Below are positions 48,988-63,903 of a DNA stretch of 64,000 nt, in pieces. How positions within the stretch are numbered: the first letter of the stretch is position 1; each line of letters begins with the position of its first letter. A program made the translations under genes and the position numbers. The DNA comes from an uncultured Clostridium sp. (lineage in GTDB: Bacteria > Bacillota > Clostridia > TANB77 > CAG-508): contig USEX01000001.1 of assembly GCA_900553755.1 (NCBI GenBank), positions 29,463 to 93,462 on the forward strand, read 5' to 3'. Below the pieces are notes generated by a model. It was not told the origin of the DNA. It saw nothing but the letters and a program-made list of their open reading frames with translations, and made no database searches.

Positions 48988-50089
48988 TTATTTTTGCTTT
49001 AAATAACTATCTATAAAATCATTTATATCTCCATCCATAACTGCCTGCACATTGCCTGTTTCATAACCAGTTCTATGGTCTTTTACAAGCGTATATGGAC
49101 AAAAAACATATGAACGAATTTGGCTTCCCCACGCTATATCCATTTGAGAACCTTTTAAATCTTCTATTTTATCTTTATGCTCTTTTTCTTTTAAATCCAA
49201 TAACTTTGATTTCAGCATTTTCATGGCCGTTTCTCTGTTTTGAATTTGAGAACGCTCAGATTGACAAGCAACTACTATATTGGTTGGCAAATGTGTTATT
49301 CTTACAGCAGATGAAGTTTTGTTTATATGCTGTCCTCCAGCACCTGAAGCACGATAAGTATCAATTCGTAAATCTTCTGGGTTAATATCTATTTCTATAT
49401 CTTCCGTTATTTCTGGCAATACTTCCACAGAAGCAAAGGATGTATGCCTTCTTCCTCCAGCGTCAAAAGGAGATATCCTTACTAGTCTATGTACTCCCAT
49501 TTCACCTTTTAAATATCCATATGCATATTCACCAATTACTAGAAATGTTACACTTTTTATTCCTGCCTCTTCCCCATCTAATCTATCTAGTTCCTTTATG
49601 TCATAACTATTTTGATTTGCCCATCTTAAATACATTCTGTATAGCATCTGTACCCAGTCTTGTGCTTCAGTTCCTCCAGCTCCAGGATGTAATGTAACTA
49701 TAGCATTATTCTGATCATATTTTCCTGATAATAGAGTATTTATTTCTAGCTTTTTTAATTTCTTTTCTATTTCGTTTGTCATTTTTAAGATTTCAATAGC
49801 TTCATCATCAGAATACTCTTCTTCTATCAATAAGTTATTATAATCTACTAAATCTTCTAATTCTATTTTTATCTTCTTGTAATCTTCTACTTTTGACTTT
49901 ATAAAATTTATTTTCTTCAGAACTTTACTAGATTTCGCAGAGTCATCCCAGAAGTTATTTTCCAAGGTTTTTTCTTCTAATCCTTTAAGCTCTTTTTCCA
50001 ATAAATCAATGTCAAAGTGAATCACCTATTTCTTGTAATTTCTCTTTTAAAGTATTAATTTTTTTAGCATTTTCTTCCAAATCAATCAC
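48988..50089 (-). CDS. prfB: Peptide chain release factor 2 with programmed +1 frameshift
   Basis: The GGQ motif (RASGAGGQHINKTSSAVR) and the SPF tripeptide (RISPFDAGG) are present. Frame 0 starts at GTG 50089 (RBS AAGAGGTG), and 25 codons (VIDLEENAKKINTLKEKLQEIGDSL) end at CTT TGA C (50017-50012). That is the conserved RF2 shift site, preceded by the SD-like AGGTGA. A +1 shift continues DIDLLEKELKG... to the stop at 48988. Confidence 0.85.
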
Positions 50090-51105: not shown

Positions 51106-51125
51106 GGCTCTATGTCAATAGAGCC
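51106..51125 (-). terminator. Rho-independent terminator after AAA+ ATPase gene
   Basis: Stem GGCTCTAT / ATAGAGCC, followed on the minus strand by a T-rich tract. Confidence 0.5.
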
Positions 51126-51156: not shown

Positions 51157-52389
51157 TTAATTATTTTTTTCATCAATTAACCAATCCAATACATTTATCT
51201 TCTTTATTCCATCAAAGTCTGCATCTAAATCATCATCTAATGTCAAAATGTATTTAGGATAATTATCATTTATTTTCCTCAATGGAGTTAATTCTCTATC
51301 TAAAATTTTATTATCTCCTTCATTTTCTCCTCTAGTTGTTAATGCAACTTGATAATATATAGTATTTTCTGGCTTTCTTGCTACGAAATCAACTTCTAAA
51401 TCATCATATTTTCCTATATATACTTCATATCCTCGTCTCAACAATTCAAGATACACAACATTTTCTAATATATGCCCCATATCTCGACCAGAGCCTTGTC
51501 CTAACATATAATATCTTAATCCTATATCTATTACATAATATTTTTCTTGAGTTTTTAAAAACTCTTTTCTTTTAATATCATATCTGTTGGCTTTAAATAC
51601 TAAATAGCTATCTATTAATGCATCTACATAGTTTGAAATTGTATTATATGATGGATTTTTATCTATTCCTTCAATATTATCACTTATGCTTTTCATACTT
51701 GTTCTATTTCCTATGTTGTCATACAAATATTTTGTAACTCTTTCTAAGACATTCTTATCTGTTATTCCCTTTCTTTGCATTACATCTTTAAATAAAATAG
51801 TATTATATATTCCATCTAAAAATAAATTTATATTTTCTGGGTTTATTTTATATAATTGGGCTGCTTGAGGAAATGAACTATATCTTAGATAATCTCTAAA
51901 TTTTCTTGACAAGTCTGTTTTATCTTCAAAGCTTGATAAATATTCTTTAAACGATAATGGTAACATTTTTATTTCTATATATCTTCCTGTAAGCAATGTT
52001 GCTAATTCTGAAGATAATAAATATGCATTTGAACCTGTTATATATAAGTCTACATCTTTATTTATAAATAAACTATCTACTGTTTTTTCAAATTCGTTTA
52101 CATTTTGAATTTCATCTAGAAAAACGTATGTCTTTTTTCCTTTTACTAATCTTTCTTTTATATATTCATATAATTTTTTTCTGTCTTGTAATTCCTCATA
52201 ATCTGCGTTTTCAAAATTTATTGATATTATTTGCTTTGCTTCTACTCCATTTTCTTTTAAGTAATCTTGAAAAATTTCAAGTAATGTTGATTTCCCACAT
52301 CTTCTTATTCCTGTGATAACTTTTATTATTTGTTGATCTTTGAAATTTTTTAATATAGATAAATAATTTTCTCTACTTATTATTTCCAT
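51157..52389 (-). CDS. AAA+ ATPase with C-terminal DUF4143-type domain
   Basis: Walker A is VITGIRRCGKSTLLE and Walker B is YVFLDEIQNV. The likely start is MEIISRENYL at 52389 (RBS AGGAGGAG). The tracked ORF is longer. Confidence 0.75.
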   Translation of the reverse strand: MEIISRENYLSILKNFKDQQIIKVITGIRRCGKSTLLEIFQDYLKENGVEAKQIISINFENADYEELQDRKKLYEYIKERLVKGKKTYVFLDEIQNVNEFEKTVDSLFINKDVDLYITGSNAYLLSSELATLLTGRYIEIKMLPLSFKEYLSSFEDKTDLSRKFRDYLRYSSFPQAAQLYKINPENINLFLDGIYNTILFKDVMQRKGITDKNVLERVTKYLYDNIGNRTSMKSISDNIEGIDKNPSYNTISNYVDALIDSYLVFKANRYDIKRKEFLKTQEKYYVIDIGLRYYMLGQGSGRDMGHILENVVYLELLRRGYEVYIGKYDDLEVDFVARKPENTIYYQVALTTRGENEGDNKILDRELTPLRKINDNYPKYILTLDDDLDADFDGIKKINVLDWLIDEKNN

Positions 52390-52673
52390 AAATCTCCTCC
52401 TAACTATAATAATTATACTATCTTTTATTATTATAGTCAAGTTCTTTCAAAATTATGAAAAAACTTTTGATTTTTCAGTAGTTTTTTCAAATGGCTCCTA
52501 TGTAATTTTTTTTAAAAGTAATAAAAATAAAGGAAATATCAATGTTTTTGAGATTTTTTCTCAAATTTTATTGATATTCCCTATTATTTTTTACTTGATT
52601 ATGTATCGAAGTTTTATCTGTCTATATACAAATAATTCAAACTTCTGCATAACGTTTCGTTATTATTCGTATT

Positions 52674-53063
52674 TTATAACACATATTTAGATATAAGCGA
52701 ATTTATCATTCTTATATCAACATTTGATTTAAAATCAAATTGTAATATATGTCCATTACTAAATGTAAGGATTAGTTCGCTATCTATATCCATAAAACCC
52801 GCTGTTTCTATTCCATAATACTGTATTTTTGAATACGGATATGAAAAATATGCAATTTTTTTACCTGTGACTCCCTTTACATTCACAACAAAAATTCTAT
52901 TATTAGTAAATATAACCTGATCTCTAATAGTTTTAAATGCACACATTATTTTTTCACTATCTACTAATAATTTCTCAATTTCTGGTCGTACTTCTTTTAT
53001 TTCTATAGCTTTTAAGTTTAAAAAATTAGAATCTAAATTAATTCCTGTAGAAATATTTGGCAT
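52674..53063 (-). CDS. Bacterial PH-domain (bPH/YokE-like) protein
   Basis: It is 129 aa, with the segment DQVIFTNNRIFVVNVKG...ELILTFSNGHILQFDF. Confidence 0.4.
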   Translation of the reverse strand: MPNISTGINLDSNFLNLKAIEIKEVRPEIEKLLVDSEKIMCAFKTIRDQVIFTNNRIFVVNVKGVTGKKIAYFSYPYSKIQYYGIETAGFMDIDSELILTFSNGHILQFDFKSNVDIRMINSLISKYVL

Positions 53064-53177
53064 AACATCCCCTCCTTTTTTATTTTTAGCAATATAATTA
53101 TATCATATTTTTAAAAGTCATCTAATTATGTAATATAATATCGGATTTTATTTTGTAATCAAATAAAAATTCAATAT

Positions 53178-53948
53178 TTATTCAAATATACTTTCATATT
53201 CTAATGGTACAATATTTTCATATAATAAAGTAAACTGTGAATTTACTTGCTTATAATCATGATAATGTCCAAAATACCATCTTTTAAATGTGCATTTTTC
53301 TGAAATCTGCTGTAAATAGTCAGTTAAAACATCTCTTTTATATGTTGAATTTATTAATGCTTGTACATTTGTTGGGCAACAATGAGATATGATGTAATCT
53401 ACTTTGTAATTTATTTTTTCTAGATTTTTTATTCCATTTTCCATTTCTTGCTTTGTGGGAAGCTCTAAATCCCACCATGAAAAATCTCTAATTCTAAAAT
53501 ATGCTCCTCTTTTACGATACTCATATATTTTTTCTTCTTCATCTAAATTCAATATTCCATCTTGAATATCATGCGATTTAGCACCACCAAAAGCAAATAT
53601 TTTTTTATTATCAATATCAAAAATTTCTCCTCTCATTAAGTGTAATACTAAATCTCTTATCTTGTGTACTTTTCCACCTTTCCATTCTTCAATTGGATGA
53701 TTATATAATCTTGTATAATTTTCATAATTTCCATCTACAAACAATGTGGTAAAATTTTTATTGTCTAACCAATCTAGTAGCTCTTTTTCTCTGCTACTCT
53801 CTTCTTCAAATGTCCATACTCCACCAAAATCTCCACATATTATTACATAATCATCTTCCGTCATTTCTGATTGTATTGGAAATTTTTCTTCGGTAAATCG
53901 TTGAAAATCACTATGTGTATCGCCTGTAATGTATATCATAATTCTCAC
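53178..53948 (-). CDS. Calcineurin-like metallophosphoesterase
   Basis: The motifs YITGDTHSD, ICGDFGGVW, VDGNYENY and GHYHDY are present (GDxH / GDxxD / GNHE-like / GHxH). Confidence 0.8.
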   Translation of the reverse strand: MRIMIYITGDTHSDFQRFTEEKFPIQSEMTEDDYVIICGDFGGVWTFEEESSREKELLDWLDNKNFTTLFVDGNYENYTRLYNHPIEEWKGGKVHKIRDLVLHLMRGEIFDIDNKKIFAFGGAKSHDIQDGILNLDEEEKIYEYRKRGAYFRIRDFSWWDLELPTKQEMENGIKNLEKINYKVDYIISHCCPTNVQALINSTYKRDVLTDYLQQISEKCTFKRWYFGHYHDYKQVNSQFTLLYENIVPLEYESIFE

Positions 53949-53954
53949 CTTCTT

Positions 53955-54455
53955 TTAGAATTCTTCATTAGAGTAGTCTTTTCCAAATCTACTTGGAGTA
54001 AAATACTTAACTTCTCCCTTATCATTTACTGAAAAGATATGTAAACACAAAATTTCTGCTATTTCCTTTGGTATTCTTCTTAATGCAACTTGTGCTGATT
54101 CCCAATATAGTCCTAATCCATATTTATATGCATGATTTATTCCTGATATTTTTCCATCTGTTTTGGACATAGAATATCTTTTTACATCCATTCTTGTTAT
54201 TATTTGCCCTAAAGCATTTAGCCATCCCTCTCTATTGATTGACTTAGCAGATTTTGCATAGGATTTGCCTTTACACTCAATATAAAAATATTCACTATTT
54301 CTTTTACCACCAACTAATTTTATATCAACACCATGTTGATGTAATTCACTCTTTTTTACTTTTTCTTCATGCCAATTACCATTTTCTTTATTTATCATAA
54401 ATTCTATGATTTTGTCTACAATAAATTGTTCTGTGATTTTTTCATTCATTTGCAT
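53955..54455 (-). CDS. Small PD-(D/E)xK nuclease-fold protein (166 aa)
   Basis: It has the motif GVDIKLV ... EYFYIECKGK (D-x15-E-x-K). It lies 17 nt downstream of hsdR and 6 nt upstream of the phosphoesterase. Confidence 0.5.
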   Translation of the reverse strand: MQMNEKITEQFIVDKIIEFMINKENGNWHEEKVKKSELHQHGVDIKLVGGKRNSEYFYIECKGKSYAKSAKSINREGWLNALGQIITRMDVKRYSMSKTDGKISGINHAYKYGLGLYWESAQVALRRIPKEIAEILCLHIFSVNDKGEVKYFTPSRFGKDYSNEEF

Positions 54456-54472
54456 TAATCCCCTTTTATATA

Positions 54473-57400
54473 TTAGTTTTCTTCAATCATTCCTTTGCAT
54501 TGTAATTCTGCTTGTCTAATAACTAATTGAACTGCTGAATCTCTTTTAACTGGTGGATAATCATATTTTATTAATAGTTTTTTTATTTCATATCTCATTC
54601 TAGCTCTAGCATCTTTTCTAATATCCCAATCTATTGTCATATTTGAATTTATTGTATCTACTAATTCTTTTGCTATTTTTACTAAAGTTTCATCTTTCAT
54701 CAATTCTTTAACCTGAGGATCATTGCCTAATGCATCAAAAAAGGCTTTTTCTTCAACTGATAAATTATATTCATTTCCTGCTGCTAGTTCTTTTTCAATT
54801 TCGTTTTTTAGATTTATCATTTCTTGTATTATTTTTTCTATATCTTCTACACTTGTTCTTTCATTGTATGCTGTTGCTATTTTTTGAAATTTTGTAGAGA
54901 ATTTTTCTTGCATAACAATATTTTGTATTCCCACTTTTTCAACATAATCTTTTAATGCCTGATTCAAGATTTCTACTGCAATGTTCTTTTTTTGCATTTT
55001 TGCTATTTTATTCATCAATTCATCACTTAGAAGCATTATTCTATTACTATTTTGTACTTTTCCAATTTGTAACATTTCATCATCTTGGATTGCTCTTTCA
55101 AGCATTTTTCCAACATGTTCGTTAATTTCTTTGCTATCTATTGTATTTCCACTATTGCTTAACTTTTTTATAAATGATCTAACTGAAATAAAAAATAATA
55201 TTTCATCCTTTATTTCTTGTGTTAGTTCTCCTGCACATAATGAATATAAATTTTTACAATCATAACTATATTTTAAAAATTCTTTCTTAGTCTTTTCATC
55301 TTTTAAAACCCAATCTGCTCCTGCCATAATTATTTCATACTTATCACTATCTGTTGTTGTAGCAAAATGGCTATATATAAATCCATGAAATATATTTCTT
55401 ATTAATTCGATTTTGTCCATTAAAACTTTAACAATTTCCGTATTGTCTACTACGTTTCCTTGATCACGTTTTGTATAAGTCTTTAATGCATCTATTAACC
55501 ATCTTTTTAATCCAATATAATCTACAATTAGTCCTCCCTGTTTGTCTTTAAATACTCTATTTACTCTTGCTATTGCTTGCATTAAGTTATGTGCTTTCAT
55601 TGGCTTGTCTACATACATTGTCCCTAGTGATGGTACATCAAATCCAGTAAGCCACATATCCACAACAATTGCAATTTTGAATTCCGAATTATAATCTTTA
55701 AAGTCTTTTTCAAGTTGATGTTTATCTTTTGAAGAGCCAATTGCTTTTTGCATTTCTTCATCATCTTTATTATTTGATGTTATTACCATATGTATTTTAT
55801 TTTTCCATTCTGGCTTTAATTCTAAAAATTTTTTATACATTGTATATGCTGTTCTTCTTGAGTAAGCAACAACCATTGCTTTATTTGCAACTGTATTTTC
55901 AATATCACTATAATTTTTTATAATATCTTTTACTATAAGTTCTAATCTATCTGGATCTTCAATAATTTCTTGCATTTTTGCCATTTCTTTTTTAGATTCA
56001 TTTAATGTTTCTTCATCTACACCTTCATCCTTTTCAAGATATGTGTAATAATCGTCTATCTCATCTAATATCTTTTGGTTTAATCCAACTCTTGCCATCC
56101 TTGCTTCATACATAATCGGTACTGTTGCGCCATCGAGAATTGCTTGAGTCATATCATATGTATCTATTACATTTCCGAAAATTTCTGATGTTGACTTATC
56201 TTTTGTTTCGACTGGGGTACCTGTAAATCCAATATAAGTAGCATTTGGAAATGCTGTATGTAAATATTTTGCAGTTCCGTATTTTTTATATGCTATCATT
56301 TTTTCTTTATCAAATTTCATTGTAGCATCTATGCCGTAATGACTTCTATGTGCTTCATCAACTAAAACTAAAATATCATCTCTTTTACTAAATACTCCTG
56401 TTTCTTCTTCAAATTTTTGTAATGTTGTAAAAAATATTCCTCCTGATATTCTATTATCAAGCTTCTCATTTAAATCTGTCCTACTCTCAATTTGCACTGG
56501 TTTTTGTTTTAGAAATTCTGAACACTGTGAAAATGTATTGAATAATTGATCATCTAAATCATTTCTATCTGTAACTACAACAATACTTGGATTTTTTAAT
56601 ATTTTTATCATATTTGCTGAATAGAACACCATAGAAAAACTTTTACCTGATCCTTGTGTATGCCATAATATTCCTGCTTTTCCTGTTCTTTCGTTATAAG
56701 CTTTTTCTGTGCTTTTAATTGCTTTTTTTACACCAAAATATTGATGATATGCTGCTAAAATTTTATTATCTCCACTCCACATTATAAAGTTATTTATAAT
56801 GTCCATTATTCTGTCTTTTCTCATCATTCCATTAAATAATGTATTATGTGTTGCCATATTTTCTTTTACAACATCTGTATCTTCAATCTTTTTCCATTCT
56901 GAAAATCTACTCCATGGACTTGTTATAGTTCCTGCTCTTGCTTGTACACCATCACTCACTATTAAAAATTGATTATAATAAAATAATGTTGGAATATGTA
57001 CATTTTGATATCCTTTTAACTGGTTATATCCATCTTCTAATTTTACTTCTTCTCTCGTTGTGCTTTTTAATTCAATAACTACTAGGGGCATTCCATTAAT
57101 AAACACAATTATATCAGGACGTTTTTCACTTTCTTCAATAATTGTATATTGATTAATTGCTTTAAATGTATTTATTTCTATATTATTAAAATCAATTACT
57201 TTTATTGTTTTGTATCTAGTTGTTCCATCTTCTTGAATTGGAACTTTTATTCCTTCTAATAAATACTGTGTAAATTGTTTATTGTTTAATATTGTATTAT
57301 TATTGTCCAAATTCTTTATTAAACGGATAACTTCTTTAATATCTTCATTTGTAATATTTTTATTTAATTTTGTTATCGCTCTTTCTAAGTCATCATCTAG

Positions 57401-57511
57401 TATTACATTTGAATAATTTTCTCTTTCTAATTCATATCCATTTAATGTTTCATATCCTAAGTTTGTTAATAATTCCATTGTTATTTTTTCTAGTGTTGCT
57501 TCATCAAACAT
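54473..57511 (-). CDS. hsdR: Type I restriction enzyme R subunit
   Basis: It is 1012 aa with Walker A ILWHTQGSGKSFSMVF and DEAH box LVLVDEAHRSHYG. The nuclease motif region is VVIELKSTTRE. Confidence 0.9.
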   Translation of the reverse strand: MFDEATLEKITMELLTNLGYETLNGYELERENYSNVILDDDLERAITKLNKNITNEDIKEVIRLIKNLDNNNTILNNKQFTQYLLEGIKVPIQEDGTTRYKTIKVIDFNNIEINTFKAINQYTIIEESEKRPDIIVFINGMPLVVIELKSTTREEVKLEDGYNQLKGYQNVHIPTLFYYNQFLIVSDGVQARAGTITSPWSRFSEWKKIEDTDVVKENMATHNTLFNGMMRKDRIMDIINNFIMWSGDNKILAAYHQYFGVKKAIKSTEKAYNERTGKAGILWHTQGSGKSFSMVFYSANMIKILKNPSIVVVTDRNDLDDQLFNTFSQCSEFLKQKPVQIESRTDLNEKLDNRISGGIFFTTLQKFEEETGVFSKRDDILVLVDEAHRSHYGIDATMKFDKEKMIAYKKYGTAKYLHTAFPNATYIGFTGTPVETKDKSTSEIFGNVIDTYDMTQAILDGATVPIMYEARMARVGLNQKILDEIDDYYTYLEKDEGVDEETLNESKKEMAKMQEIIEDPDRLELIVKDIIKNYSDIENTVANKAMVVAYSRRTAYTMYKKFLELKPEWKNKIHMVITSNNKDDEEMQKAIGSSKDKHQLEKDFKDYNSEFKIAIVVDMWLTGFDVPSLGTMYVDKPMKAHNLMQAIARVNRVFKDKQGGLIVDYIGLKRWLIDALKTYTKRDQGNVVDNTEIVKVLMDKIELIRNIFHGFIYSHFATTTDSDKYEIIMAGADWVLKDEKTKKEFLKYSYDCKNLYSLCAGELTQEIKDEILFFISVRSFIKKLSNSGNTIDSKEINEHVGKMLERAIQDDEMLQIGKVQNSNRIMLLSDELMNKIAKMQKKNIAVEILNQALKDYVEKVGIQNIVMQEKFSTKFQKIATAYNERTSVEDIEKIIQEMINLKNEIEKELAAGNEYNLSVEEKAFFDALGNDPQVKELMKDETLVKIAKELVDTINSNMTIDWDIRKDARARMRYEIKKLLIKYDYPPVKRDSAVQLVIRQAELQCKGMIEEN

Positions 57512-57606
57512 AATTTGCCCCCTAAATTATATTATTTTATTACTATATTTATACTTTTTTCAGTTTTTCATTATTATATACTGCTTATTTGTCCATTTTT
57601 AATCAT

Positions 57607-57700
57607 ACAAATAGTAATTTGTATGATTATATTTCTATTTTATCTAAGTCTATTTCTCCACTCATAAGTTTTGGTAGTAATGCATCTCTTAACTGTGTTA
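57607..57700. repeat. ~94-bp repeat copy A at 3' end of hsdS1 (direct repeat of 59876-59969), includes 12-bp palindrome AATCATACAAATagtaATTTGTATGATT
   Basis: The first 73 bp are identical to the second copy and the remainder is about 85% identical. Confidence 0.85.
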
Positions 57701-58811
57701 ATGATTGATTTTGTTCACTATTTAAAATCATTTTGCTATAAATTGGATTACATTTTTCATAAAATGTCTCTAATTCATCTTCTTTAGGAATTGGAATTTC
57801 AATATTTTCAATATCTGATGTGCTAATATTAGGTTGAGCACTACCATATCCTTTTGAATTTAGCGTATTTTGCATATCCTCTAATAGAAATAAACAATTT
57901 AAATATAATTCACTATATTTATCATTTCCTCTTATAACACCAACACGTTGATTTAAGAAATATCTATAATCTTGTCCATATAAATATCCTGTTTTTCCTA
58001 ATTCAGCCCCTGTCATTGCTATAATTACATTACCTCTTAATAGTAAAAACTTTTTGTCTACTTTGTCAGCCACTTCATCATATACACATTGAGTATTATC
58101 TATATCAACTCCGCTTGCACTTATGTTTTTTATTTTTAAAATTTTGTTGTTTGTAGTCTCATTTAGTAAATCTTTACCTTTAAATGCGTAACCACCTTGA
58201 ATTTTTCCTATATCATTAACATTCCCATTTCGCACAAATTCATTATTATAATAATGTTCCTTAATATATTGTTCTAAAATCTTGTACAAATTATCATTTG
58301 TTTTATTATTTAATCCAATTTTATTATCTATATTATTTAATATTTTTACAATTTTATCTTGAATATTTCTAGCTGGTAAATCTATTTCTATATTTTCAAA
58401 AGTTGATTTATTAAGTATTGGCATTGTTGATCCGCCAGCGATTCCTTTTAAATATTCTTTTTTATCACTAAAATAATAATATAAATAGTGAGGATTGCAT
58501 ATATCTTTAATATCTGTTATAGAATTGATTTGCTGATTTGTAATTCCTGGTCTATTAATCATATATACCTTTCCCATATCAGAGCCTATACAACTGATAC
58601 ATACACTATCTTTTTTAATTATTTGTGATTTAAATTTATCTTCTACAAAAGATGTTAAATATCGTTCCGTGCTCTCTATATATTTGCAATTATCTTTCAT
58701 ATCCCTTGGAGTAACAAACAAATACTTATCAGCTAGTTCTGAAAAATTTTCAAGTTGTTTAGTTGATGGAGTTTTTCCAGTTACAATTTTACCTATATCT
58801 TTTAATTTCAT
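57627..58811 (-). CDS. hsdS: Type I R-M specificity subunit (full length, two TRDs)
   Basis: It is 394 aa with the central conserved KTNDNLYKILEQ and the C-terminal LRDALLPKLMSGEIDLDKIEI. Confidence 0.85.
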   Translation of the reverse strand: MKLKDIGKIVTGKTPSTKQLENFSELADKYLFVTPRDMKDNCKYIESTERYLTSFVEDKFKSQIIKKDSVCISCIGSDMGKVYMINRPGITNQQINSITDIKDICNPHYLYYYFSDKKEYLKGIAGGSTMPILNKSTFENIEIDLPARNIQDKIVKILNNIDNKIGLNNKTNDNLYKILEQYIKEHYYNNEFVRNGNVNDIGKIQGGYAFKGKDLLNETTNNKILKIKNISASGVDIDNTQCVYDEVADKVDKKFLLLRGNVIIAMTGAELGKTGYLYGQDYRYFLNQRVGVIRGNDKYSELYLNCLFLLEDMQNTLNSKGYGSAQPNISTSDIENIEIPIPKEDELETFYEKCNPIYSKMILNSEQNQSLTQLRDALLPKLMSGEIDLDKIEI

Positions 58812-58822
58812 AAAACTTTCTC

Positions 58823-59824
58823 CTATCCTATATACTTTCTATGTGATATTTTCACATTATTTTGATTTACCATTGCATAATGCATAGTTGTCTCTATTTT
58901 TACATGTCCTAATAATTTTTGTACTTGTTCTATTGGCATACCTTTATCAATTGCCATTGTTGCTAGTGTTCTTCTAAATTTATGTGGATGAACTTTATTT
59001 ATTTCTGTTTCTAATCCTATTTTTCTAACTATCAATTCAATTCCAGCAATTGATAGTCTTTGGTACGGCTTATTTTTCGAAACAAATAATGCTTCATTCT
59101 CATCTTGTCGAGTGTTTATGTATTGTTTTAGATGTATTTTTGTTCTTGCATCAAAATATACTTCTCTTTGCTTATTTCCTTTTCCAAATGCTTTACAAGA
59201 TCGATCTTCAAAATTAATATCTGAAATATTCAATTTTATTAATTCTCCAACTCTTATTCCCGTTGAATATAATAATTCAATTAATACTAAATCTCTAATA
59301 CAATTACTTGTATCTCGTAATTTTTCAAGATTTTCATCTGTTAAAGTTTCTTTTATTATTGTTGGTGTTTTTACCTTATGTATTCTTCTAACGGGACTCT
59401 TTATAATATAGTCTTCATCCTCTAACCAAGCAAAAAAACTAGATAAAACTCTTCTTAAATTATCAATAGTTACTGCATTACATTTTGTATTTTCTTTGTA
59501 ATCTGCTAAATATTTCCTGATTTCTTCTGTTTGAATCTCTTTAATTGGCTTATCTATTGTATTTATTAATTTCTCGATGATTTCTCTGTAGTATTTTAAA
59601 GTTCTAGTTGAACAACCCTCTACTTCTTTTGCAGAAAGAAAAATATTTATATAATTATCATTGGTTTCTTTTATCTGTTGTTTTTCTTTTTCATCAGTTA
59701 AAATATTTATTTCAACTTTTTTTAAATTATTCTCAAGTGTTTCTTTTAATTTTTCTAATTGATATTGAGTTAATACAAGTGCCATATCATTTGTAATGTT
59801 AATAATTATGTCTGTTTTAATCAT
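58823..59824 (-). CDS. Tyrosine site-specific recombinase (phage-integrase family) embedded in hsdS locus
   Basis: The catalytic C-terminus is HPHKFRRTLATMA ... LLGHVKIETTMHYAMV (R, HxxR and Y present). It is 333 aa. Confidence 0.85.
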   Translation of the reverse strand: MIKTDIIINITNDMALVLTQYQLEKLKETLENNLKKVEINILTDEKEKQQIKETNDNYINIFLSAKEVEGCSTRTLKYYREIIEKLINTIDKPIKEIQTEEIRKYLADYKENTKCNAVTIDNLRRVLSSFFAWLEDEDYIIKSPVRRIHKVKTPTIIKETLTDENLEKLRDTSNCIRDLVLIELLYSTGIRVGELIKLNISDINFEDRSCKAFGKGNKQREVYFDARTKIHLKQYINTRQDENEALFVSKNKPYQRLSIAGIELIVRKIGLETEINKVHPHKFRRTLATMAIDKGMPIEQVQKLLGHVKIETTMHYAMVNQNNVKISHRKYIG

Positions 59825-59875
59825 ATAATATTCCTCCTCTAAAGAATATTATATCATTTTATGTAAATTAGTTAA

Positions 59876-59969
59876 ACAAATAGTAATTTGTATGATTATA
59901 TTTCTATTTTATCTAAGTCTATTTCTCCACTCATAAGTTTTGGTAGTAGTGTATCTCTTAATTGCTCTA
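59876..59969. repeat. ~94-bp repeat copy B at 3' end of hsdS half-cassette
   Basis: It matches 57607-57700 in the same orientation. Confidence 0.85.
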
Positions 59970-60483
59970 ATGTTTCATTTTGAGAAATATTTAAAAAATA
60001 CTTATTTTGTATTTGTTTTGCAATGTTATTGTATTCTTTTAAAATAGCATCACTTGGAACTTTAACAATAATGTCTTTAATATTGTCAATCGTTATTTGT
60101 GGTTGTGCAGAACCGGTTGTATACGAATAATAAGGATTTAATAATGATAATTCTTTTAGATAAAAATAATACTTTCTATCACATTCTAATATCAATGAAT
60201 TATTAGTAACAAAGCAGTTTGGCTTTGTAAATATGACTTTGCCTGATGCTGCACCTCTACATGAAACAAGAACTTGCGATTCATCATACATTTTTTCTTT
60301 ATAAAACCCTATAATCCCGTTACCACCATACACTGGATAACCTTCTGATAATATATTCTTTGTTGGTAGTCCTTTTCCGTATTTAATATTACAAAATTCT
60401 TTTAAAGTTAATTCTTTAATGTAATTATTTTTATTATTATCATTAAAATATTTAAAAAATAACTGTTTAGACAATTCTAACAA
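59896..60483 (-). CDS. hsdS: hsdS half-cassette (central conserved region + TRD + conserved C-terminus); TTG-initiated or silent
   Basis: The frame reads TNDNL-LELSKQLFFKYF ... LRDTLLPKLMSGEIDLDKIEI. The last 18 residues are near-identical to hsdS1. Confidence 0.7.
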   Translation of the reverse strand: MLELSKQLFFKYFNDNNKNNYIKELTLKEFCNIKYGKGLPTKNILSEGYPVYGGNGIIGFYKEKMYDESQVLVSCRGAASGKVIFTKPNCFVTNNSLILECDRKYYFYLKELSLLNPYYSYTTGSAQPQITIDNIKDIIVKVPSDAILKEYNNIAKQIQNKYFLNISQNETLEQLRDTLLPKLMSGEIDLDKIEI

Positions 60484-60535
60484 ATTATCATTTGTTTAAT
60501 TCTTAAGCCACATTATATAACAAATTATCATTTGT
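60480..60535. repeat. 17-bp direct repeat aacaaattatcatttgt x2 flanking a 23-bp spacer (40-bp frameshifting insertion in hsdS2); a third copy lies at 58286-58301 in hsdS1
   Basis: Each copy encodes the conserved central TNDNL. The upstream half reads TNDNL-LYNVA-stop and the downstream half reads TNDNL-LELSKQ in a different frame. Confidence 0.8.
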
Positions 60536-61018
60536 CTGAATATTTAATTCTATTTTTTTATCAATATCAAATAATACTTTTGATATTTTCTTTTGCTGCG
60601 ATTTATCAAAATCTAGAATCTCTATATTTTCCAATTCTTTTCTATTTATAGAATCAAATACTGTTCCAGTAGATTTCATTTTAATTTCTTTTATAGAATT
60701 TTTCAGCAAATAATATAAATATTGATTATTACCATCTTTCATTTCTATTGAACATAGACCTCTGCCAATACATATGTCTTTATTAGCTATATTCAAATCC
60801 CCTACCGGAGCTCTTACACTCATTAATACTGAATTTTTTTTCCCAATTTTTTTTGGTTCTGTTGTCCAAGTATCAATTGTTGGATATAAAAAATTAAAAG
60901 TTTTATTCCCCTGTAAAAAAGGAATCCCTCTTCCATTATTATTGTAAGAACTTCCACTTGGAGATTGTCCCATATTAATATCTGCTATTTCCTTTAATTT
61001 AATTTTATTAAACTGCAT
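60503..61018 (-). CDS. hsdS: hsdS half-cassette (N-terminal TRD + central conserved region), truncated by stop after TNDNLLYNVA
   Basis: It starts MQFNKIKLKEIADINMGQSP, which is typical of an HsdS N-terminus, and ends IDKKIELNIQTNDNLLYNVA. The tracked ORF extends to 61075. Confidence 0.7.
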   Translation of the reverse strand: MQFNKIKLKEIADINMGQSPSGSSYNNNGRGIPFLQGNKTFNFLYPTIDTWTTEPKKIGKKNSVLMSVRAPVGDLNIANKDICIGRGLCSIEMKDGNNQYLYYLLKNSIKEIKMKSTGTVFDSINRKELENIEILDFDKSQQKKISKVLFDIDKKIELNIQTNDNLLYNVA

Positions 61019-61043
61019 TTTATACCTACCTTTTTTGATTATT

Positions 61044-61970
61044 CTACCACTGAAATATAATTTCATCACTTTCATTTGTAACTTTTATAAATTCTTTTGT
61101 TTCATCTAAAATAACATTAATATTTTTTCTATCTTCTAGTTTACATTTTATTATAACAACGTTGTTATCTTCGCATTCTTCAAATTTAATATTTTTTATT
61201 CTTACTATTGATTTTCCTAATGCATTACTAATTTTTTCTGAAAAATACTCTGTTCTTGAAAACTCTATATACTCAGATAAATCCCTTAAATTGTATTCTT
61301 TACAGATAAAATCAACAATATCTGTATCGTTCTTTGCACTTGTAGCTTTACCTCTTCTTTCTTTTATTTCATCATTCCAATTTAAGCCATTAAATATATT
61401 ATCATTAGTCGCAATTATATATTCAGAATTTTCTTTCTCCATCTTTTCTTTAATACTTTCTAATATAACAACATCTTTAAATCCAGCATCACTAAATTTT
61501 TTGTTATTAGTTCCTCCAAAAAAGAATGGTCTCTTCTTTTGAATAGCTCTTTCTATAATGGGATAAAATTTATCTTTGCTTGGATATGATAAAACTTCCA
61601 TATATTCTTTCTCTTTTGAAATATATTTATTGAAATTCGGCTTTAAATAATCCTCGTACTCTTTTACATTAGAATATCTATTTCTAATAATATTAATGTC
61701 ATATCCAACTTTTACAATATCTGATTTTATTGAATTATACCCATCATCTAAATTATCTAACTTTTCTTGTATATTTTTGTACTCTTCAATATAATGTTTA
61801 TATATTTCATCCAATACTATTTGTGGAATAATTATTTTAAAATTATTATAACCATTATATGTAATAAATTTTTTTAATCTAGCATATACATTATTAAATT
61901 TAAATTCAAATAATTTCTTGTTTTGAATTTCTATTACATTTGTATCCAAAAATATATTTACTTTTCTCAT
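61044..61970 (-). CDS. PIN-like domain protein (308 aa) between hsdM and hsdS
   Basis: The N-terminal NIFLDTNVI, KDVVILESI and IIATNDNIF segments carry the acidic residues of a PIN/DUF4935-like fold. Its start overlaps the hsdM stop (ATGA). Confidence 0.45.
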   Translation of the reverse strand: MRKVNIFLDTNVIEIQNKKLFEFKFNNVYARLKKFITYNGYNNFKIIIPQIVLDEIYKHYIEEYKNIQEKLDNLDDGYNSIKSDIVKVGYDINIIRNRYSNVKEYEDYLKPNFNKYISKEKEYMEVLSYPSKDKFYPIIERAIQKKRPFFFGGTNNKKFSDAGFKDVVILESIKEKMEKENSEYIIATNDNIFNGLNWNDEIKERRGKATSAKNDTDIVDFICKEYNLRDLSEYIEFSRTEYFSEKISNALGKSIVRIKNIKFEECEDNNVVIIKCKLEDRKNINVILDETKEFIKVTNESDEIIFQW

Positions 61971-63484
61971 ATTTCATATCCTATTGCTTTCAAATTGTTT
62001 TTTATTTCTTCATCTAGTTTTGCACTCTCTTGCATTTGCTCTGTCAATTTTGATGTTAAGTCTTTCATTTTCTCTTCAAAAGGCATACCATCGTCTTCAA
62101 CTTCCTTTGTTCCAACATATCTTCCTGGTGTTAAGACATAGTTGTTTTCTTTTATTTCAGAAATATCAGCTACTTTGCAAAATCCTGCAATATCTTCGTA
62201 ATTTACATTATTAATAAAATGATGATATGTACTTGAAATTTTATTAATATCTTCATCAGAAAGTTCTCTTAACTTTCTTGTAACCATATTTCCCATTTCT
62301 CTTGCATCAATAAATAATGTTTTTTCAGTTTGCTTTTTATTTCTATTTATAATCCAAATACTACAAGGAATTGTAACTGTATAAAATAAATTTGATGGCA
62401 TTGCTAAAATACAATCTACTAGATCTGCTTCTAATATATTTTTTCTTATTTCTCCCTCTCCTGAGGTATCAGAAGATAATGCTCCATTTGCTAATATTAT
62501 TGCTGCTTTACCATTTATTGATAATTTATCTATCATATGTTCTACCCATGCCATATTGGCATTTCCTTTAGGTGGTATTCCATACTTCCATCTTGGGTCT
62601 TGCAATAATTTTTCTTGTCCCCAATCACTTATATTAAATGGTGGATTTGCTAAAATAAAATCGGCTTTTAATCCTTTATGTAAATCATTTTGAAATGTGT
62701 CATCTGCAAATTTTCCAATATCACCATTTAAACTTCTAATTGCTAAGTTCATTTTTGCTAATTTCCATGTGGTTGGATTCTTTTCTTGTCCATATATTGC
62801 TAAATCTTGTACTTTCCCTTGATGTCTTTCAATAAATTTTGTACTTTGTACAAACATTCCTCCTGATCCACAACATGGATCATATATTCTTCCTTTATAT
62901 GGCTCTATCATTTCTACCATTGTTCTAACAAGACATGCCGGAGTATAGAATTCTCCACCTTTTTGTAATTCTTTTGCTGCAAATTCTCCTAAGAAGTATT
63001 CATATATTCTTCCTAAAATATCTTTATCTTGAGCTTCTTTACTTCCAATTTTTATATTTGTAAATAAATCTATTAATTCTCCAAGATTTACGTTTCTATA
63101 ATCTGGGCTGTTATACTCTTTTATTAATACTCCCTTTAATGATGGATTTTCTTTTTCTATTTCATCAAGTGCTTCGTCTATATATTGTCCTATATTTGCA
63201 TCTTTAGAATGTGCATTTAAATATTCCCATCTTGCTTTAGCTGGAACATAAAAGATATTATCCATTGTATATGAATCTCTATCTTCTTCCATTCCATCTC
63301 CATTTTCAACTAATTGGCGATATCTTTCTTCAAATGCATCAGATATATATTTTAAAAATATTAATCCCAATATTATAAATTTATAACTAGATACTGGAAC
63401 TGCTCCTCTCATTTTATCAGCTGCAGCATATAATTTTTTTTCTAGTTCTTGTAACTCTTCTTCACTATTCATTTTATCCTCCAA
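61967..63484 (-). CDS. hsdM: Type I R-M N6-adenine methyltransferase
   Basis: It is 505 aa with motif IV ILANPPFNISDW and motif I YDPCCGSGGMFV. The HsdM_N region is present. Confidence 0.9.
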   Translation of the reverse strand: MEDKMNSEEELQELEKKLYAAADKMRGAVPVSSYKFIILGLIFLKYISDAFEERYRQLVENGDGMEEDRDSYTMDNIFYVPAKARWEYLNAHSKDANIGQYIDEALDEIEKENPSLKGVLIKEYNSPDYRNVNLGELIDLFTNIKIGSKEAQDKDILGRIYEYFLGEFAAKELQKGGEFYTPACLVRTMVEMIEPYKGRIYDPCCGSGGMFVQSTKFIERHQGKVQDLAIYGQEKNPTTWKLAKMNLAIRSLNGDIGKFADDTFQNDLHKGLKADFILANPPFNISDWGQEKLLQDPRWKYGIPPKGNANMAWVEHMIDKLSINGKAAIILANGALSSDTSGEGEIRKNILEADLVDCILAMPSNLFYTVTIPCSIWIINRNKKQTEKTLFIDAREMGNMVTRKLRELSDEDINKISSTYHHFINNVNYEDIAGFCKVADISEIKENNYVLTPGRYVGTKEVEDDGMPFEEKMKDLTSKLTEQMQESAKLDEEIKNNLKAIGYEI

Positions 63485-63597: not shown

Positions 63598-63903
63598 TTA
63601 CCACTTATTTTGTAACTCATTAATTACATTCCATACCTTTCCTATTTCTTGTTTCACCTCACTTAAATCCACAGTATAAATCCTTCCACTATTCGACAAA
63701 TACGTTAATTGATTTATATTATTTCCTATCCTTCTAAATTCTGATACAACTTCATTTAATCCATCAACTATAACTATCTCTTTATCTAAACCTTGTTCAA
63801 TCAAATATTCTGATAAACTTAGTTTAGCAATTTTGCTTTTCTCAATCAATCCGCTCTTCTCTTTTTCACTAACTCTAATTGTTATAATTTTATCTTTCTT
63901 CAA
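63598..63903 (-). CDS. mobC: Second MobC-like RHH relaxosome accessory protein
   Basis: It has an RHH-like IITIRVSEKEKSGLI and the MobC motif IGNNINQLTYLSN (compare IGNNLNQIAHKAN at 22521-22835). It is 101 aa. Confidence 0.65.
   Translation of the reverse strand: MKKDKIITIRVSEKEKSGLIEKSKIAKLSLSEYLIEQGLDKEIVIVDGLNEVVSEFRRIGNNINQLTYLSNSGRIYTVDLSEVKQEIGKVWNVINELQNKW

Follow-up and report, generated by a model that had tools for sequence, protein, structure and literature searches.

P166, a PD-(D/E)xK-like gene that trails restriction-modification operons, in the Type I defence island of an uncultured Clostridium

Additional defence genes tied to Type I restriction-modification (R-M) systems include PrrC, the Campylobacter R-linked open reading frames (ORFs) RloA and RloB, and TgvAB of Vibrio cholerae (PMC11411939). 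The 'guilt-by-embedding' candidates of PADLOC, the PDCs and HECs, are also tied to Type I operons (bioRxiv 10.1101/2024.01.29.577857). An embedded gene, as defined by Payne et al., lies between genes of the same R-M system and on the same strand. The locus described here belongs to an uncultured Clostridium sp. (Clostridia; TANB77; CAG-508) and was analysed in a window of 64,000 nucleotides (nt), AT-rich at about 27% G+C (assembly GCA_900553755.1, contig USEX01000001.1, positions 29,463 to 93,462); all positions below are those of the window unless another locus is named. The interval 52,674 to 54,455 holds three genes: an ORF of 166 amino acids (aa) after hsdR, here called P166, a metallophosphoesterase gene downstream of it, here called MPE, and a bPH_1 gene. 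All three follow hsdR, the last R-M gene, and thus are not embedded in the sense of Payne et al. A first-pass annotation suspected that these genes, perhaps with the ATPase gene that comes next, form one defence set. On sequence comparison, the conserved link is a different one, which that annotation did not propose: it is the link of P166 with R-M operons, across phyla and R-M types.

P166 (53955..54455, minus strand) is a stand-alone PD-(D/E)xK-like protein of an unannotated family, as judged from its conserved residues and its context. The ORF begins 17 nt past the hsdR stop with an AAAGGGG ribosome-binding site, and the D...ECK motif noted at first reading is confirmed as D44 and E60-C61-K62. 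The first ATG is absent in close relatives, so the true start is probably the second ATG at 54449, which gives 164 aa. The elements conserved in 53 diverse members and between phyla are E9, G42-x-D44, E60-x-K62, G83-Q84-x3-R88, Y112-G113, and an RR(I/L)P helix, with E9, D44, E60, K62, Q84, and R88 invariant or nearly so. D44 falls on one predicted strand and E60-x-K62 on the next, with E9 in helix 1, which is the PD-(D/E)xK signature. The AlphaFold2 (AF2) model of P166, with a pLDDT of 79, weakly matches MmcB-like, VRR-NUC, and NOV_C nucleases in structure searches. On the strength of the catalytic pattern on the expected helix and strands, together with these weak generic nuclease-fold matches, P166 can be placed in the PD-(D/E)xK superfamily, and not in Mrr_cat or NOV_C.

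The match of P166 to NOV_C (PF13020) reaches 17.3 bits (E = 0.0051), under the gathering threshold of 22.1 bits, and some distant relatives match NOV_C at 3e-5. Window P166 has no match to Mrr_cat (PF04471), which is matched by 5 of the 53 relatives, at best with 5e-5. The match to MTES_1575 is sub-threshold, as is the best PADLOC score, to PDC-M28B (E = 8e-4). A sequence search of the PDB with the family profile yielded nothing useful. The family is small, with 577 clusters at 90% identity; at 50% identity, 126 clusters were counted in a set of 1.84 billion representative proteins. P166 and its relatives are labelled 'hypothetical' in public sources, and literature searches found no described gene of this kind downstream of hsdR. 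An N-terminal HARE-HTH domain is present in five relatives and a RAMA domain in one, all of them distant members of the family. Both domains have been proposed as DNA-modification readers in Type IV-like nucleases (PMC11037411). The window protein consists of the nuclease domain alone, with no N-terminal reader domain.

A search with a HARE-HTH-fused relative leads to a subfamily in bacteria of the Candidate Phyla Radiation (CPR), 33-43% identical to P166. Six CPR members, picked solely for their long contigs, were examined, and five of them lie just downstream of an R-M operon: one of Type I, one of Type II, and three of Type III or Type III-like. The Type I case (P0404) is 12 nt downstream of an hsdR that has the same domain architecture as the window hsdR and 32% identity to it. 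The Type II case (P0473) stands at the end of an operon with a helix-turn-helix (HTH) gene, a Dam-like methylase, and NmeDI. The remaining three follow a Type III run of mod, res, and a 204-aa gene (P0438), a Type III res gene at a distance of 5 nt (P0432), and a run of methylase, ResIII/YagJ, and a 55-aa gene (P0410). The sixth (P0321), which is HARE-HTH-fused, is found beside an N6_N4 methylase (a DNA methyltransferase), a HATPase, and a ThsB-TIR gene. The strongest evidence for a functional tie between the P166 family and restriction-modification comes from gene order, namely from how this position recurs across phyla and R-M types, and it argues that the family is not simply a local anchor gene.

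None of the six CPR contexts has an MPE neighbour; a 246-aa gene following one CPR relative was tested as a candidate and is not an MPE. A small ORF of 55-69 aa lies directly before the P166-family gene, or overlaps it, in two of the six contexts (L171:4789-4998 and L180:2610-2777). These two ORFs are 31% identical (E = 1e-5), are rich in cysteine pairs, and are absent from the window. By sequence they look like zinc ribbons, and they may encode a small partner protein of the P166 family.

A scan of one genome per species gave 63 P166 loci. They come from gut metagenome-assembled genomes labelled Clostridia, Bacilli, or 'Tenericutes', with the exception of one complete Mycoplasmoidaceae genome of 678 kb. 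Neighbouring genes were called, clustered, and annotated, and the R-M count was restricted to the 39 loci whose sequence extends 3 kb or more upstream. Of these 39 Firmicute species loci, 17 have a co-oriented Type I or Type III R-M gene no more than four genes upstream, and the number becomes 19 when either side of P166 is considered. Type I R-M genes of at least four unrelated families precede P166 on its strand at a distance of 2-65 nt, and Type III mod-res pairs also precede it, at times with a YgjP-like peptidase gene in between. Downstream of P166 the content varies, and includes MPE, WapI-like genes, and AbiLi/RloB pairs, as well as single cases of Gabija, SoFic, HerA, and a Type IIG enzyme.

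P166 retains 81-99% identity between loci whose R-M systems are unrelated and whose flanking AbiLi share 30-75%. Two loci, L023 and L028, have P166 and AbiLi that are 99% identical and R-M families that are different, with the breakpoint within about 20 nt of the P166 start. Since the upstream R-M family is swapped freely at this level of P166 identity, P166 is not tied to one HsdR. In about ten species, P166 is followed closely by an AbiLi/RloB pair. A P166 and AbiLi/RloB unit was considered and rejected, as the adjacent AbiLi belong to subfamilies with 30-40% identity, other genes intervene, and the pair is absent in the CPR contexts. The Mycoplasmoidaceae homologue (L077:9995-10480, CP185406.1, genetic code 4) is full-length, with 161 aa and a tblastn identity of 54% to window P166. 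Its neighbours, assigned by sequence reading alone, are a Type IIG-like methylase, an AbiL-like ATPase, an Abi-like gene, and a DUF2779-like nuclease.

In the window, P166 follows hsdR (54473..57511, minus strand), which encodes the 1012-aa Type I restriction subunit. The hsdR protein carries the Pfam domains HSDR_N, SWI2_SNF2, T1R_D3-like, and T1RH-like_C and matches PADLOC REase_I at 1.2e-286. The gap of 17-23 nt, the ribosome-binding site of its own, and the lack of a terminator suggest that P166 would be translated from the hsdR transcript. The next ORF, 53178-53948, is real. Its GTG start is unlikely; most likely MPE begins at ATG 53939, behind a GAAGGTGAG ribosome-binding site, with a length of 253 aa that agrees with the gene calls of public contigs. 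The P166-MPE gap is then 15 nt, in place of the 256 aa and 6 nt first given. Thus hsdR, P166, and MPE each have their own ribosome-binding site, with spacings of 17 and 15 nt.

The 114-nt spacer between MPE and bPH has no significant RNA structure (z = -0.4) and contains a possible extended -10 element, TGATATAAT, at 53097-53105; a terminator was sought in this spacer, and none was found. After bPH, a hairpin with a U-rich tract (52523..52591, minus strand) is a likely intrinsic terminator of the hsdR...bPH transcript. It was identified by RNA folding, with a free energy (dG) of -24.9 kcal/mol and z = -8.1, and none of 200 shuffled sequences was equally stable. The promoter-like site TTGACT-17-TATAAT (52412..52440, minus strand), with 11 of 12 consensus matches, lies directly upstream of a ribosome-binding site and ATG 52389, where the ATPase gene probably starts, and a terminator-like site follows that gene at 51106-51125. 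The ATPase gene looks like a separate transcription unit because it has its own promoter and terminator. The genes hsdR, P166, and MPE, perhaps with bPH, look like one transcript.

In the best reading, the interval forms the downstream tail of a defence island whose core is a Type I R-M operon that includes a shuffling hsdS region, and the tail would be a stack of independently assorting single-gene cassettes and not a multi-gene machine. Within it, P166 is probably a metal-dependent PD-(D/E)xK endonuclease that is co-expressed with the restriction subunit and adds nuclease activity to the R-M system it trails. For P166 we infer nuclease activity, a role in defence, and co-transcription with hsdR. 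The family has a catalytic-type signature, stands downstream of R-M operons across phyla, and is independent of both the HsdR family and MPE. P166 may act as a Type IV-like enzyme that cuts DNA spared by its R-M system, as Mrr does beside EcoKI, or it may process DNA after restriction. The two options carry roughly equal weight; the reader-domain fusions in relatives support the first.

Several findings weigh against this reading. A Foldseek search of the PDB with the P166 model gave nothing below E = 0.03, and P166 is above threshold in no Pfam, NCBIfam, PHROG, or PADLOC model. The alignment of the P166 family to E. coli Mrr with hhalign has a probability of 0.05%, so this profile comparison detects no relationship. 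In about half of the Firmicute loci, no R-M gene could be recognised next to P166. Housekeeping genes surround P166 in some, where it follows SecA or stands in the order ABC transporter, P166, flavodoxin, HD, and prfB. The Firmicute loci are also not independent observations, because many are related lineages with shared synteny. P166 is unusually conserved for a defence gene, with a ratio of nonsynonymous to synonymous substitution rates (dN/dS) of about 0.05-0.12. Finally, hsdR, P166, MPE, and bPH may be co-transcribed, as no terminator is apparent between MPE and bPH.

The slow evolution and the housekeeping surroundings, seen in several lineages, would suit a conserved gene with no defence role, such as a repair or resolvase-type nuclease, that flanks a hot spot of island insertion and has no functional link to R-M. 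P166 is 79% identical where RF2 of the same two genomes is 49-50% identical, and each locus examined has one copy. Phage and plasmid collections contain no P166 match, and IMG/VR has just 4 matches among 2.9 million viral contigs. Some loci lie at the edge of integrase-bearing islands, and a swap of the R-M genes with its breakpoint at the P166 start is as expected of a recombination anchor. This explanation is nevertheless unlikely. The CPR relatives occupy the same R-M-downstream site, behind Types I, II, and III, with other flanks, and for this reason a lineage-specific hot spot is inadequate. The Mycoplasmoidaceae homologue also lies in a defence island, the HARE-HTH and RAMA fusions in relatives bring in domains of restriction-enzyme type, and the family, at 126 clusters, is small and patchy and not clade-wide. 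The housekeeping alternative raised in the first-pass annotation, paralogues in a conserved chromosomal context outside islands, applies in part, to some of the P166 loci only.

The same swap boundary bears on another explanation, in which P166 is a selfish or mobility-promoting, homing-like nuclease that drives the exchange of adjacent R-M cassettes. P166 is located exactly at that boundary, and recombinases are often nearby. Identity at third codon positions between the window and L013 is 60% for P166 versus 45% for prfB, which suggests some horizontal transfer. Homing nucleases usually decay. P166, in contrast, is under strong and long-lasting purifying selection, even where synonymous sites are saturated. 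There are no conserved flanking repeats or target-like sequences around P166 across the contexts, and the absence of the family from phage and plasmid collections is also against mobility. A mobility nuclease is very unlikely on this evidence.

A broader form of the accessory-nuclease reading is doubtful. In it, the P166 family would be a general, portable accessory nuclease of Type I, II, and III R-M systems in small-genome bacteria, namely CPR, reduced gut Firmicutes, and Mycoplasmoidaceae, would be expressed together with these systems from the downstream end of their operons, and would either finish DNA that has been restricted or restrict DNA that escapes.

MPE (53178..53939, minus strand) is a calcineurin-like protein with a match of 3.6e-40 to PHROG 1649 'metallo-phosphoesterase'. 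Its match to Pfam Metallophos (PF00149) is marginal, at 21.7 bits against a cut-off of 21.5. PADLOC PDC-S10 is matched at 32.2 bits over residues 5-89 only; the authors of that model work with full-length matches of at least 50 bits, and MPE is therefore not a PDC-S10 member. Of the metal-binding motifs of the family (DxH, GD, GNH(D/E), H, GH, and GHxH), motifs I, II, IV, V, and VI are present, with D7, H9, D37, N71, H123, H186, H225, and H227 in place. Position 72, in motif III (GNHE), is histidine in 90 of 93 homologues and tyrosine in the window only, with the codon TAT at 53724-53726. The same Y72 allele occurs in public assemblies (P0121), and the substitution is therefore not a read error in the window. 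Loss of the motif III histidine greatly lowers catalysis in metallophosphoesterases, and the window MPE is likely to be impaired because of this change. By its sequence, MPE is a member of the calcineurin-like family, and the window allele lacks one defining catalytic residue. The AF2 model is poor (pLDDT 48), having been built with homologues of at least 91% identity alone, and a PDB sequence search yielded nothing useful.

MPE has more than 7,900 homologous clusters, and copies with 25-50% identity are present in phage and phage-like contigs. Its context was read in 77 informative metagenome loci, with MPE 78-94% identical, and P166 is directly upstream in just 14 of the 77. Elsewhere the slot before MPE is occupied by PDC-S18, PDC-S56, a Mokosh-like helicase, or a GmrSD/HEC-06-like gene. 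Further occupants are SieB, a second phosphoesterase, a primase-like gene, a NifU-like gene, and a 383-aa gene of no known kind. The 383-aa gene is unrelated to P166, replaces it behind an hsdR that is 98-99% identical (L085 and L094), and stands between P166 and MPE in L121. Several MPE copies are truncated. In L017 (10498-10590), P166 is 96% and hsdR 99% identical to those of the window, and MPE is lost save for about 50 nt of its 5' end, with AbiLi/RloB next. MPE would thus be a separate accessory phosphoesterase that is common in this bacterial clade, occurs in phage-like contigs, and is often truncated or lost.

Two further features of MPE loci were observed. A 126-aa gene of NifU_N type shares 10 nt with the start of MPE in most of some seven loci (L122, L123, L142, L151, L158, L120, and L135), and in L158 it is 12 nt apart from MPE. 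It lies between hsdS/recombinase genes and AbiLi, an odd site for an iron-sulfur scaffold. The 98.7-kb gut contig UOOA01000354.1 carries two MPE paralogues about 20 kb apart (L087 and L126), which are 93% and 83% identical to window MPE, and only one of them has P166 upstream.

The idea that P166 and MPE, with or without bPH and the ATPase, form one multi-gene defence or abortive-infection system appended to hsdR draws on the tight gaps of 17 and 15 nt, the single orientation, and the lack of a terminator before the end of bPH. The hsdR-P166-MPE-bPH-ATPase block recurs in the closest relatives of the window, and in at least nine species P166 and MPE are direct neighbours with a gap of 5-24 nt. 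The co-occurrence check suggested in the first-pass annotation largely refutes such a system, as MPE accompanies P166 in 9 of 63 P166 loci and P166 accompanies MPE in only 14 of the 77 MPE loci. P166 is replaced by other genes, or these insert between hsdR and MPE, and MPE is deleted beside a P166 that is 96% identical to that of the window. The window MPE lacks the motif III histidine, and bPH was observed in a single recent lineage, with 98-99% identity. The ATPase, already known as a single-gene candidate, has a promoter and a terminator of its own, and the CPR relatives of P166 have no adjoining MPE. A multi-gene system is accordingly quite unlikely. P166, MPE, and bPH/ATPase occur independently in related genomes, and because the genes assort in this way, neither the trio nor the quartet is a conserved unit. 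The block is a mosaic of cassettes and is not to be cloned or named as a unit.

The bPH_1 protein (52674..53063, minus strand, 129 aa) is a member of bPH_1 (PF08000), with 128 bits over profile positions 4-122 of 122 (2.5e-37), and also matches phrog_7115 at 7.6e-37. The gene is seen only in close relatives of the window, always between MPE and the ATPase gene; P166 and MPE are not a conserved set with bPH and the ATPase, which accompany them in one lineage only. The ATPase (51157..52389, minus strand, 410 aa) has the Pfam domains AAA_14 (6e-36) and DUF4143 (1.2e-20). It is a full-length PDC-S01 protein, with a match to PADLOC PDLC04787 of 1.4e-153 over residues 16-424 of 427. The 'guilt-by-embedding' screen (bioRxiv 10.1101/2024.01.29.577857) put forward PDC-S01, an ATPase fused to a PD-(D/E)xK domain (DUF4143), as a single-gene candidate. 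It is described as the fourth most common defence candidate across prokaryotes and as unvalidated experimentally (PMC12988326). The ATPase of the window is this stand-alone candidate and already has a name; P166 has no significant PADLOC match. ATPase, bPH, and MPE are ordinary.

The remainder of the locus agrees with the first-pass placement of defence genes at an R-M locus, as the island is attached to a Type I R-M system. The four ORFs of the tail lie on the minus strand where they had been placed, and their fold assignments are correct. They are not chance ORFs, since each has many homologues and is under purifying selection, with pairwise dN/dS values of about 0.05-0.3 against relatives. 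All genes from 63.5 kb down to 51.1 kb are on the minus strand, in the order hsdM, PIN_12, two hsdS half-genes, tyrosine recombinase, full hsdS, hsdR, P166, MPE, bPH_1, and ATPase. The first gene of the operon, hsdM (61967..63472), encodes 501 aa, and the identical public gene has Pfam HsdM_N and N6_Mtase. The PIN_12 gene (61044..61970) encodes 308 aa, with PF16289 PIN_12 on the identical gene, and no PADLOC match was found for it. Its neighbours, hsdM and the first hsdS half-gene, overlap it from either side, and it is thus embedded as Payne et al. define the term. By the logic of 'guilt-by-embedding', it is itself a candidate defence gene.

The hsdS region (57627..61075, minus strand; Pfam Methylase_S and Phage_integrase) comprises two half-genes (60503-61075 and 59896-60483), a tyrosine recombinase gene between the hsdS copies (58823-59824), and a full hsdS (57627-58811). 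It contains a 129-nt direct repeat with 88% identity (57599-57727 and 59868-59996) and repeats of 40 nt. The repeats are direct, not inverted, in the window snapshot, and the arrangement varies among related strains. The region looks like a shuffling, phase-variable specificity locus. Upstream of hsdM are a NikA/MobC-like gene of 101 aa (63598-63903, minus strand), a UPF0236 transposase, and UvrD and TIM fragments (window and L080:1-8800). These genes suggest that the whole block sits in a mobile-element remnant. Whether the whole block is inserted between secA and prfB was tested by a search for secA upstream of the island, which found the NikA/MobC-like gene, the transposase, and the gene fragments there instead. 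A small coiled-coil ORF and prfB come after the ATPase gene. The first reading frame of prfB begins at GTG 50089 and has the classical RF2 +1 frameshift site CTT TGA C (50011-50017, minus strand) with a Shine-Dalgarno-like GGTGAT before it, which is an ordinary arrangement.

Genes attached to R-M loci have repeatedly proved to be new defences, as PrrC, TgvAB, and the PADLOC candidates illustrate. The P166 family trails three R-M types in two very distant groups of small-genome bacteria. If P166 is an auxiliary nuclease, the annotation of R-M loci in CPR and reduced gut Firmicutes would change, and a compact new nuclease would become available for testing. If the general-accessory reading is also true, many R-M systems of these bacteria would be modules of R-M plus nuclease. 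The negative result matters as well, as an apparent system of nuclease, phosphoesterase, PH-domain protein, and ATPase turns out to be a mosaic.

The immigration control region of E. coli K-12, a cluster of restriction systems which also holds mcrBC, is among the closest parallels: mrr, the gene of a PD-(D/E)xK restriction-type nuclease, adjoins the hsdR of EcoKI, and P166 likewise adjoins hsdR. Some relatives of P166 match Mrr_cat and carry the winged-helix-like HARE-HTH domain at the N-terminus, a layout of reader plus nuclease similar to that of Mrr. In contrast, P166 itself lacks a domain for reading DNA and is roughly half as large as Mrr, and it is co-oriented and apparently co-transcribed with hsdR, whereas mrr is divergent from hsdR. 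PrrC, the Rlo genes, TgvAB, and the PDC and HEC genes are nested in Type I loci, whereas P166 is appended after the last R-M gene; unlike these Type I-embedded genes, it also trails Type II and Type III systems. A screen for embedding would miss P166 because it is appended and not nested, and this is probably why the family is not flagged by current tools. The ATPase is a full-length member of PDC-S01 with nothing distinctive. MPE is like the phage-type enzymes of PHROG 1649 by profile, differs from them in the motif III tyrosine of the window copy, and has only a partial and weak match to PDC-S10. From its sequence and gene order, P166 differs from its analogues as a bare nuclease domain that is appended, is unannotated, and accompanies three types of R-M system.

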